Source: a virus (Duplodnaviria > Heunggongvirae > Uroviricota > Caudoviricetes). Taken from it: a stretch of DNA of 4,747 nucleotides. The position numbers are program-made. Shown here piece after piece: positions 1-3,000 of this stretch; within the stretch, counting starts at the first letter, position 1, and each line of letters opens with the position of its first letter. The stretch lies in the IMG/VR virus record IMGVR_UViG_2671180556_000011; one strand, given 5' to 3'.

Positions 1-3000
1 AGTACGAGGTTCACTATGGCTCGCATCGAACAGGAAGTGATGATTTTGTCTGGGGGGAGTAACAGTCGTTTAACCCCAGAATAATCCCGTAACTGAGGTC
101 GCTATTGGCGGCCTTTTTTGTATCCGCGCCACGCCCGGCGCATATCAACCACAGAGCCTTTCGGGGGTGAGCTTACGGAGTGGTCAGTGTGACTTTCTCT
201 GTGGGCAGATCGCTCCCGGGCGTTGGCTCACCCACCCAAAGGAACGTCACGATGTTTGGTATTTTTGGTAAAAAAGCCCGCCGAGCGGCAGTGGAAATTA
301 AAAAGTTTGAGAAACGTGATCTGGCACAGGCGGTTATTAATGCTGCCTATCTGGTGGCCTATGCAGATGGTGAATGTGAGGCTTCAGAGAAAGTGAAGAT
401 CGAGCAGGTCTTGCGTAACCAGCCTGCGTTGTCCGCGTTTACGTCAGAAATTAATGCGATTAGCGCAACCATTATCGGTCAGCTGGATACGAACTTTAAA
501 ATTGGTCGTCGAGCGGCATTGCGTGAAATTGAAGATGTGAAACACGATACGCGTGAAGCGGAAGATGTGCTGGATGTGGCGGTGGCCATTGCGGAGGCAG
601 ACGGCGAAATTGAGCCGGAAGAGCGCAAGGTGCTGGAAGAGATTGCCGGTGTTCTGGGTCTTCGTCTGGAGAATCACCAGTGACGGTAAAACTGCGCCTG
701 GCTGTGGCTGCACTCCTGCTGTTTCTGGTGGTGATGGTGGACTTCAGCAGCCGGATAATGTCAGTGCTGGCTGACGGTGTGCTGGTGGCGGGTGTGGTGG
801 TTGTTGCTTTCCCGTTGCTGAAAAAGAAAGCATCAGGCGATTAGCAGGGTATCAGTTACCCGTTGAAATTTTTAAATGCCTCACAATTCAGGCGGTTGAC
901 TGTTGTCTGGTTTGCGGGGAGTTTGTTAAAAGAAACTGGCATGGTGAATCCCCCTGTGCGGAGGGGCAATCAGCAACTGGTGTTTTGTCACCGACCCTTA
1001 TCCTTTCTGTGCGGGTTCAGGTGCTGATACTGAACTCACCGGGAGGCACCCGGCACCATGCAATGGCACATAGCGCCACTCTCCAGCCCCTCTCCGGAGG
1101 GGCTGTTTATATTGATTTTGTCAGATGTGAGTAAACTCCTTATGGACTTTGTTGTTTTAGTCCATAAGGACATATTTGCAGAGTGCAACGGTTATTAAAG
1201 CATTCATTCAATACGTTATCTGTATTTGTAGGGCATTCCTGGCTGTTTTTGATTAAATTCCAGAATTTTTTATTGAATGGTACTACGTTGTAAATGGTTA
1301 CAGGTAGCACTTTGTTATTGAGCATGATACCTGTGTGAGTCAGTGTAAATATACTTTCAGGAGGTAAGAAAGCATCCGATTGATACCAGATTATTAATTT
1401 TATTTTACTCCATATGACTGAAAAAGATATTCCGCATGATGGCTGGATAACTGTATCAATCACAATCCACTTCATTTAGTTTCCTTGTTTATGTCTTGCT
1501 GGTGATGTTCTGAAAAGTATAAATGATATTTTTGAATGTAAACCATAGAGCAGAATTATTTTTCTGATGTTGTTTATTGTTTATTTAAATGCAGGGTGGT
1601 TTATATCTCGTCTTGTAGTTTACCCATGCATATCTGCTTGATGATGAGGTTTTTATTTAAGGTATGGTTTTGTGTTTTTTCTGTATTACATGTCAGGTAT
1701 TTTAAAGAATTATTTTTCAGATGGTGGAAAGAACCATGGCATTTAAACACTATGATGTTGTCAGGGCGGCATCGCCGTCAGACCTTGCGAAACGACTGAC
1801 ACAAAAACTGAAGGAGGGGTGGCAGCCATTTGGCAGTCCGGTGGCCATCACGCCCTATACCCTGATGCAGGCCATTGCGGCGGAAGGTGATGTCACCACA
1901 CCTGTGGTGGTGAAGCCGTCGGATGGAGAAGGCGCAGTTATCAGCACCACCAGCAACCCGGAGTATTACTTTGTTGTTGCCCTGGCCGGGCAGTCAAACG
2001 GTATGGCGTATGGTGAAGGGCTTCCGCTGCCGGAGACATATGACCGTCCGGACCCGCGTATTAAACAGCTGGCGCGTCGCAGCACTGTCACGCCGGGTGG
2101 TGCGTCCTGTAACTACAATGACATTATTCCTGCGGACCACTGCCTGCATGATGTTCAGGATTTGAGTAAGTTTTCACACCCGAAAGCCAGCGCAGCTCAG
2201 TATGGATGCGTGGGGCAGGGATTACATATCGCGAAGAAATTGTTGCCGTTTATTCCGGCGAATGCCGGTATTCTTCTGGTTCCGTGCTGCCGTGGTGGTT
2301 CTGCATTTTTGGCGGGCGATGAAGGTACCTTCAGCGAATCCACCGGCGCAAGCGAGACCTCGGCACGCTGGGGTGTAGATAAGCCACTGTACAAGGACCT
2401 GCTTACCCGTACTCAGGCCGCACTGAAGGCTAACCCTAAAAATATTCTGCTTGCAGTGGTCTGGATGCAGGGCGAGTTTGATTTGAAACAGGGTGCATAC
2501 GCCACTCAGCCGGGGCTGTTTGATTCCATGGTGGAAAAATATCGTTCTGACCTGTCGGAATTCGGAGGTCAGTGTCTCGGGGGCTCTCCGTCATCGGTTC
2601 CCTGGATTTGTGGCGACACGACCTACTACTGGAAGCAGACTTATTCTTCGCAATACGATGCGGTGTATGGTGCATACAAGACGAAATCCGCAAAAAAAAT
2701 CTTCTTTGTGCCGTTTATGACGGATGAAAACGGGCGAAATGTGGGTACCAACGAGCCGTCAGAAGATCCGGATGTTGCGGATATTGGGTATTACGGAGCC
2801 GGTGGTCGAACGGACGCCAAAACCTGGACGACGGCCGACCGTAAAACGCATTTTGGATCATGGGCACGTCGTGGGATTATTTCCGACCGTCTGGCAACGG
2901 CGATTCTTGTGCATGCCGGGAGAACCGCTGAATTCATTACCGGAAAACAGCCTGATACGGTGAAGCCCACCGGACCTTCCGGTGAAGGTACGGAGAGAGA

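Follow-up and report, generated by a model that had tools for sequence, protein, structure and literature searches.

The stretch of DNA analysed here, 4,747 nucleotides of the Caudoviricetes virus record IMGVR_UViG_2671180556_000011 and referred to below as the window, correspond to a lambdoid prophage's late region. A first-pass annotation made from the sequence alone had reported an exact inverted repeat, CCTTATGGACT-TTGTTGTTTT-AGTCCATAAGG, at 1138-1169, and the repeat is present precisely there. With a repeat finder, one more T-A pair is gained, which gives arms of 12 bp (1137-1148 and 1159-1170) that are 100% complementary and enclose a spacer of 10 nt; it is the longest perfect inverted repeat of the window. 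The palindrome overlaps the 3' end of iraL, a minus-strand gene whose product belongs to the IraM family of RssB anti-adaptors, and in the iraL-sense RNA it reads UCCUUAUGGACU-AAAACAACAA-AGUCCAUAAGGA. The gene and the parts of the repeat are the following.

1140..1475, minus strand: iraL coding sequence, 111 amino acids, IraM-family RssB anti-adaptor (NCBIfam NF007393, RefSeq annotation, match to IraL of CFT073)
1476..1545, minus strand: iraL 5' untranslated region and promoter (published RACE sequence, PMC4045071, mapped to 1508)
1137..1170, minus strand: palindrome or hairpin with a 12-bp stem and a 10-nt loop (repeat finder, fold energy, shuffles)
1159..1170, minus strand: 5' arm in the iraL sense, coding (reading frame, family alignment)
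1149..1158, minus strand: loop, comprising the last base of a Leu codon and Lys-Gln-Gln (reading frame, family alignment)
1137..1148, minus strand: 3' arm in the iraL sense, comprising Ser-Pro codons, the stop codon TAA (1142-1140) and three untranslated bases, GGA (reading frame, sister lineages)

The open reading frame (ORF) at 1140-1475 had been listed as a candidate antisense ORF. It can be named as iraL, a gene already characterised, and it includes the palindrome. RefSeq labels it 'anti-adapter protein IraM', and the NCBIfam IraM model NF007393 matches residues 1-110 of the 111 with 162.3 bits against a cut-off of 121. The identity to iraM of Escherichia coli K-12 is 60.4% at the amino-acid and 68.8% at the nucleotide level; the published values for IraL of strain CFT073 against K-12 IraM are 58.9% for the protein and 67% for the nucleotide sequence (PMC4045071). 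The published iraL start, mapped by 5'-RACE (ACATCACCAGCAAG...), falls on position 1508 of the minus strand, with two mismatches further along, and TTTACA and TATACT/TACTTT hexamers lie upstream of it. Judged by sequence comparison, the ORF carries the marks of IraL, namely a prophage context, the published transcription start and an identity of about 59% to K-12 IraM. IraL (c1429) of the uropathogenic strain CFT073 is an IraM-family anti-adaptor of RssB that stabilises the stress sigma factor RpoS in logarithmic phase (Hryckowian et al., 2014; PMC4045071), and iraL is known from prophages of uropathogenic E. coli (UPEC), enteropathogenic E. coli (EPEC) and Shigella. Like CFT073 iraL, the window ORF is found in many pathogenic E. 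coli genomes, and iraL of the window type is present in 1446 of 5426 complete E. coli genomes; the window allele differs in being 97%, not 100%, identical to the commonest protein cluster. A Pfam scan of the window IraL protein returned no family at E <= 0.01, and the precomputed protein-database annotations of its homologues list PF11183 (labelled PmrD). The papers on IraL, including PMC4045071, in which the word 'terminator' does not occur, cover the 5' end and expression changes with Fur and temperature and contain nothing on the 3' end, and no published description of an iraL 3' hairpin was found. The gene is interrupted by IS1A in E. coli AR_0058 (locus L087, 1541-2653) and frameshifted in another genome (locus L085, 1540-1874), which suggests that its loss is tolerated in some strains.

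On the minus strand, iraL ends with TGT CCT TAT GGA CTA AAA CAA CAA AGT CCA TAA, followed by GGA, and the palindrome spans the last ten codons, the stop codon and these three 3' bases. The 5' arm provides the last base of Cys102, the codons of Pro103-Tyr104-Gly105 and the first two bases (CT) of Leu106. It corresponds to the family-conserved motif CPYG(L), in which C102, P103 and G105 are invariant in the family alignment. The repeat thus overlaps the ORF and straddles its stop codon, which lies inside the arm 1137-1148, and the earlier placement, with the plus-strand terminator on one side and the antisense ORF's 3' end on the other, is incorrect.

The expectation that such a repeat would hardly arise by chance is borne out by the data. 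Among 300 dinucleotide-preserving shuffles of the window, a perfect repeat of at least 12 bp with a loop of 3-20 nt appeared in four (about 1% for one window). A 49-kb prophage locus contains four repeats with arms of at least 12 bp, including a terminator-like one and ones beside IS transposase genes. Such repeats are more frequent in real E. coli and prophage DNA than in shuffled sequence, so that the palindrome is real and non-random, yet of a class that is common in genomes. Its stem comprises 5 G-C and 7 A-T pairs. Folded as minus-strand RNA, the palindrome reaches -17.5 kcal/mol (z = -4.6 to -5.8), a value that no shuffle equals, and the plus-strand RNA folds at -19 to -23 kcal/mol with flanking G-U pairs.

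The history of the repeat was read from related genes. A direct search of IMG/VR for IraL protein loci gave only copies that were 99-100% identical, and diverse relatives were reached via the protein database and a look-up of the encoding contigs. In K-12 iraM, the copy of an O157 Stx2c phage, the P0007 lineage and an E. albertii copy, a stop codon (TAA or TGA) stands directly after the Lys codon, and no stable hairpin forms at this place. The first Gln codon of the window gene, CAA (1154-1152, minus strand), sits where these other IraM genes have their stop codon, and the four-residue C-terminal extension of IraL stems from loss of the ancestral stop. This extension occurs in three lineages: that of the window (QQSP), P0002 (QQCP; protein 89% identical) and P0004 (QHSP; 76% identical, from Stx phages). 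The C-terminal tail of IraL is variable, with QQSP, QQNP, QQCP and QHSP all observed.

A core, TTAYGGRC...GTCCATAA, is common to the three lineages. P0002 and P0004 carry the imperfect repeat TTACGGAC...GTCCATAA, and P0007 has TACGGAC...ATCCATA; the presence of TCCATA shortly past the own stop codon of P0007 suggests that the imperfect repeat is old. More distant IraM genes are without the repeat. Of the 12 pairs, 7 are kept in P0002 (-4.8 kcal/mol) and 9 in P0004 (-8.7 kcal/mol), and neither fold beats its shuffles. GG at 1139-1138 of the window corresponds to TT or TA in the sister lineages, between conserved CCATAA and AGTTTAC, and TAT at 1166-1164 corresponds to TAC in the sisters, in P0007 and in the O157 copy. 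Every state specific to the window adds a pair. The palindrome is degenerate in two otherwise conserved sister lineages, which is the situation that the first-pass annotation had named as speaking against its own proposal.

Within the iraL lineage, the alleles of the repeat are distributed over 120 IMG/VR contigs as follows.

58 of 120 contigs: perfect palindrome
35 of 120 contigs: A1161G, GGA to GGG, synonymous
13 of 120 contigs: GGG together with G1138C
8 of 120 contigs: GGG together with G1147A (Ser to Asn)
5 of 120 contigs: P0002 type
1 of 120 contigs: T1170C (TGC)

The symmetry of the DNA is broken in 62 of these 120 natural copies, and the perfect repeat is limited to one allele of one lineage. 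Among complete E. coli genomes, a 60-nt query placed on the repeat matched at 99% or better in 1000 of the 1365 matching genomes (at most 73% perfect), a count that is an upper bound for the perfect palindrome, as some matches cover 59 of the 60 bases. Across 70 gap-free aligned loci, 2 of 34 sites are variable in the hairpin and 33 of 637 elsewhere, which indicates that the hairpin is conserved no better than its surroundings. No compensatory change was found among the variants of the 120 contigs and the two sister lineages; each variant leaves a G-U pair or breaks a pair. In the absence of double compensatory changes, covariation neither proves nor disproves an RNA structure, and the sequences are too similar for a covariance model. 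The folds of the natural variants are weaker, at -11.5 to -16.9 kcal/mol. No sign that selection maintains the hairpin was found.

The surroundings of the gene bear on any role of the hairpin, and the neighbouring features of the window are listed here.

252-683: TerB-family gene
680-844: DUF3927 gene
910..1114, plus strand: STnc100-family RNA of the lambdoid late-promoter-leader kind, convergent with iraL (137.6 bits, E = 2.5e-31, full-length model match)
1084..1114, plus strand: tR'-type intrinsic terminator, a 9-bp GC-rich stem (1084-1105) followed by TTTATATTGATTTTG (terminator scan; discriminant +24 on the plus and -39 on the minus strand)
1105..1734, no strand assigned: AT-rich iraL module, 30-35% G+C (composition, homology break)
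1721-3697: sialate O-acetylesterase-like gene

Further genes of the window are DUF1378, DUF826 and a holin gene. The Stx2a phage Stx2_95 aligns up to 1104 and again from 1735 and is without the module, so that the insert corresponds to 1105-1734. The position at an island boundary that had been assigned to the palindrome thus holds, as it falls within the AT-rich module, about 32 nt from the left edge. Lying 32 nt from the palindrome, the tR' element ends the short RNA of the plus strand that converges on iraL, and its antisense face forms an equally stable hairpin (-17.4 kcal/mol), located 32 nt downstream in the iraL sense, in every phage-borne lineage. An Rfam scan of the window at E <= 1 found only STnc100 (910-1114) and nothing at 1137-1170.

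The palindrome had been judged a poor intrinsic terminator that lacks a strong U-tract, and both points are confirmed. The terminator scan is silent on it, and the discriminant, which combines hairpin and U-tract by a formula that reportedly goes back to d'Aubenton-Carafa and co-workers in 1990, is -43 on the minus and -55 on the plus strand, compared with +24 for tR'. A T-run is absent after the stem on either strand, where the tails are GUUUACUCAC (minus) and CAUAUUUGCA (plus). The palindrome resembles intrinsic and bidirectional terminators in being a stable stem-loop at a gene end, between convergent transcription units. It differs from them in the missing U-tract on both strands, in a loop of 10 nt instead of a short loop of 3-8 nt, in having only 5 G-C among its 12 pairs, in a stem that holds a stop codon and coding sequence, and in a strongly negative discriminant where that of tR' is positive; the palindrome does not qualify as a canonical terminator. 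The RNA alternative named in the first-pass annotation, in the form of a stem-loop closing the minus-strand iraL mRNA at its 3' end, is physically plausible. With the exonuclease-blocking 3' stem-loops of bacterial mRNAs, the palindrome shares the position at the 3' end of an mRNA and a stability of -17.5 kcal/mol; the differences are that its hairpin is not kept in the sister lineages and that a second, equally stable hairpin follows 32 nt downstream.

With moderate confidence, we favour a reading in which the palindrome is a lineage-specific hairpin of the iraL mRNA and not an operator, an old imperfect repeat that was perfected, probably by a template switch, and yields a non-essential stem-loop with no sign of upkeep by selection. 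According to this proposal, the change of the ancestral stop codon to CAA would have brought a short tail (Ser-Pro-stop, with GGA behind it) newly into translation. The arm 1159-1170 would have been held in place by the Cys-Pro-Tyr-Gly-Leu codons, and the tail arm 1137-1148 would have turned into its exact complement in one lineage. A change of the dinucleotide TT or TA to GG, together with TAC to TAT, would have made the imperfect repeat exact in the window lineage, and the most economical route would be a quasi-palindrome 'correction' through template switching between the arms during replication. Mutations of this kind have been documented in E. coli (PMC7202029), and template switching has been described to create RNA hairpins (PMC8794818). 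The iraL case resembles them in that an imperfect repeat present in relatives appears to have been perfected by a clustered change, consisting of a dinucleotide and one further site, and in that each change in the window lineage raises complementarity. It differs in that the event is deduced from few lineages and that selection could mimic the pattern. With its -17.5 kcal/mol, the stem-loop over the iraL stop codon may cause pausing of RNA polymerase or hold up 3' exonucleases, and we infer that, beside its template-switch origin, it may have a modest effect on 3'-end formation or stability of the iraL mRNA.

Several points weigh against this interpretation. The template-switch origin is suggested by sequences from three lineages and a few outgroups, from which the polarity of the clustered, pair-adding changes was taken, and selection that fixed independent point mutations would yield the same pattern. 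No other lineage is nearly as widespread as the one that forms the stable hairpin, which is present in 1446 of 5426 complete genomes. The commonest substitution, A1161G, keeps a G-U pair in the iraL-sense RNA (-16.9 kcal/mol), but the plus-strand RNA and the DNA dyad are left with an A-C mismatch (-13.9 kcal/mol), and sparing of the sense strand is what selection on a sense-strand RNA would predict. As iraL has no U-tract terminator of its own and the antisense face of tR' is without a U-tract as well, the palindrome hairpin could be useful to the gene. A literature search for 3'-end mapping (Term-seq, 3' RACE) in UPEC, EPEC and Shigella yielded nothing usable on this question.

In the strongest alternative, which we regard as a tentative possibility, the stem-loop is a selected RNA element that forms the functional 3' end of the iraL mRNA, either as a weak U-poor terminator or as an exonuclease barrier that raises stability, and that would also keep iraL transcription out of the convergent late-promoter leader. 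Its location, precisely where an expressed gene with a mapped transcription start has its 3' end, is consistent with this, as are the strength of the fold, the lack of another minus-strand terminator nearby, the G-U compatibility of the main polymorphism (A1161G) on the sense strand only and the fact that all changes of the window lineage add pairs. The tail GUUUACUCAC, the discriminant of -43 and a loop longer than the terminator norm argue against termination, and the stop codon within the hairpin means that a terminating ribosome would melt the stem. Moreover, the sister lineages lack a stable hairpin and code for intact proteins, polymorphism of the arms equals that of the background, uncompensated pair-breaking changes occur in 21 of the 120 copies, and the role of an exonuclease barrier could be taken by the antisense hairpin of tR' (-17.4 kcal/mol, 32 nt downstream). 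A more far-reaching version of the same idea, for which we see little likelihood, would make the perfected hairpin an adaptive, lineage-specific 3' stabiliser of the iraL mRNA that raises IraL dosage, insulates the gene from the convergent leader RNA and contributes to the unusually high log-phase RpoS of UPEC, EPEC and Shigella strains, helping to explain why it was this iraL lineage that reached about a quarter of E. coli genomes.

On the plus strand, the palindrome could act as an insulator, a second barrier behind tR' that catches read-through from the constitutive late promoter in a lysogen and shields iraL from antisense transcription. We consider this improbable. Its position 32 nt downstream of tR' and the even better fold of the plus-strand RNA (-19 to -23 kcal/mol) would suit such a function, but the tail is CAUAUUUGC with a discriminant of -55, the commonest variant costs the plus-strand hairpin 5 kcal/mol and spares the minus-strand one, and the hairpin is missing in the sister lineages. 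In addition, an active late promoter for the STnc100 RNA of the window is only putative; in E2348/69, about 2.7 kb separate the Q-like gene from the sole STnc100 copy within 8 kb.

The original proposal of an operator, in which the 12-10-12 palindrome binds a dimeric prophage or host regulator, appears highly improbable. In its favour are the perfect dyad symmetry and a distance of 22 bp, or two helical turns, between the centres of the half-sites, and dyad symmetry in a lambdoid prophage recalls the repressor operators of lambdoid phages. Unlike these, the palindrome is single-copy, lies inside a coding sequence and away from a promoter, has no additional half-sites in the prophage and has lost its symmetry in about half of its copies. 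The half-site search suggested by the first-pass annotation was carried out on the window and on the complete E2348/69 prophage locus and returned only the two arms and chance-level matches: the window holds no further copy, and the 49-kb locus contains four matches at up to 2 mismatches, two of which are the arms, against 2.8 expected. The repeat is found at a gene 3' end; its distance is about 340 bp to the iraL promoter and 550 bp to the start of the esterase gene, and one of its arms is dictated by conserved codons. The asymmetry of 62 of 120 natural copies and the degeneration to 7-9 of 12 pairs in the sister lineages also count against an operator, and the exact palindrome occurs in a single E. 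coli-type context among 185,579 species genomes. Of the four matches in the exact-pattern scan of these genomes, one belongs to E. coli; the other three have different spacers and come from unrelated metagenome bins. The latter, with 11-bp arms and 13- or 11-nt spacers, come from two cyanobacterial metagenome bins and one uncultured bacterium (L221 3728-3762, L222 1584-1618, L223 2409-2441) and are presumably chance or unrelated matches.

Further candidates were tried and rejected. A dispersed repeat or repeated extragenic palindrome disagrees with a median of one place and a maximum of two per E. coli genome; the E. coli genome matches listed lie under an iraL (IraM) annotation. PhoP-box or CRP-like readings of the flanks have one decent half-site each, at a gene 3' end; the 12-bp stem is too short for an RNase III site; and a recombination site at the island edge does not fit the break of homology with the iraM-less phage at 1104/1105, which is inside tR' and not at the palindrome.

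Some observations concern the neighbours of iraL. The STnc100 RNA (910-1114, plus strand) and iraL (1140-1475, minus strand) form a tail-to-tail pair of which both members may raise RpoS: StxS, the version of STnc100 in Stx phages, activates rpoS translation (PMC7547250), and iraL blocks degradation of RpoS. The window RNA departs from the O157 copy in the segment that runs from the conserved GGCACC hairpin to tR'. Stx2c-type and some Stx2a phages have an iraM-like gene between stx2B and the esterase gene (L002 1207-1500, L089 1836-2164), and a leader/tR'-like element is situated directly 3' of stx2B. From this layout and from positions 881-1114 of the window, cargo genes (stx there, TerB and DUF3927 here) appear to be bracketed by late-promoter-leader sequence. 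An ORF cut by the window edge (1-82, plus strand) is followed at its 3' end by a terminator-like hairpin and a T-run (95-115, plus strand), and helix-turn-helix and Peptidase_M78 domains are found in the gene upstream of TerB in the related locus L092.

Taken by itself, the palindrome is ordinary and matters little. The analysis removes a false lead, as no hidden operator is located at the island boundary, and its useful outcome is a correctly annotated context, in which the 'candidate antisense ORF' is iraL, a virulence-associated regulator of RpoS stability. The locus also provides a clean natural case of a quasi-palindrome in a coding sequence that was made perfect, with the stop codon in the stem, in the pattern expected of a template-switch mutation. 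Should the stem affect how stable the iraL mRNA is, it would offer a readily testable cis element for the tuning of RpoS in pathogenic E. coli, for which natural 'mutant' alleles exist.

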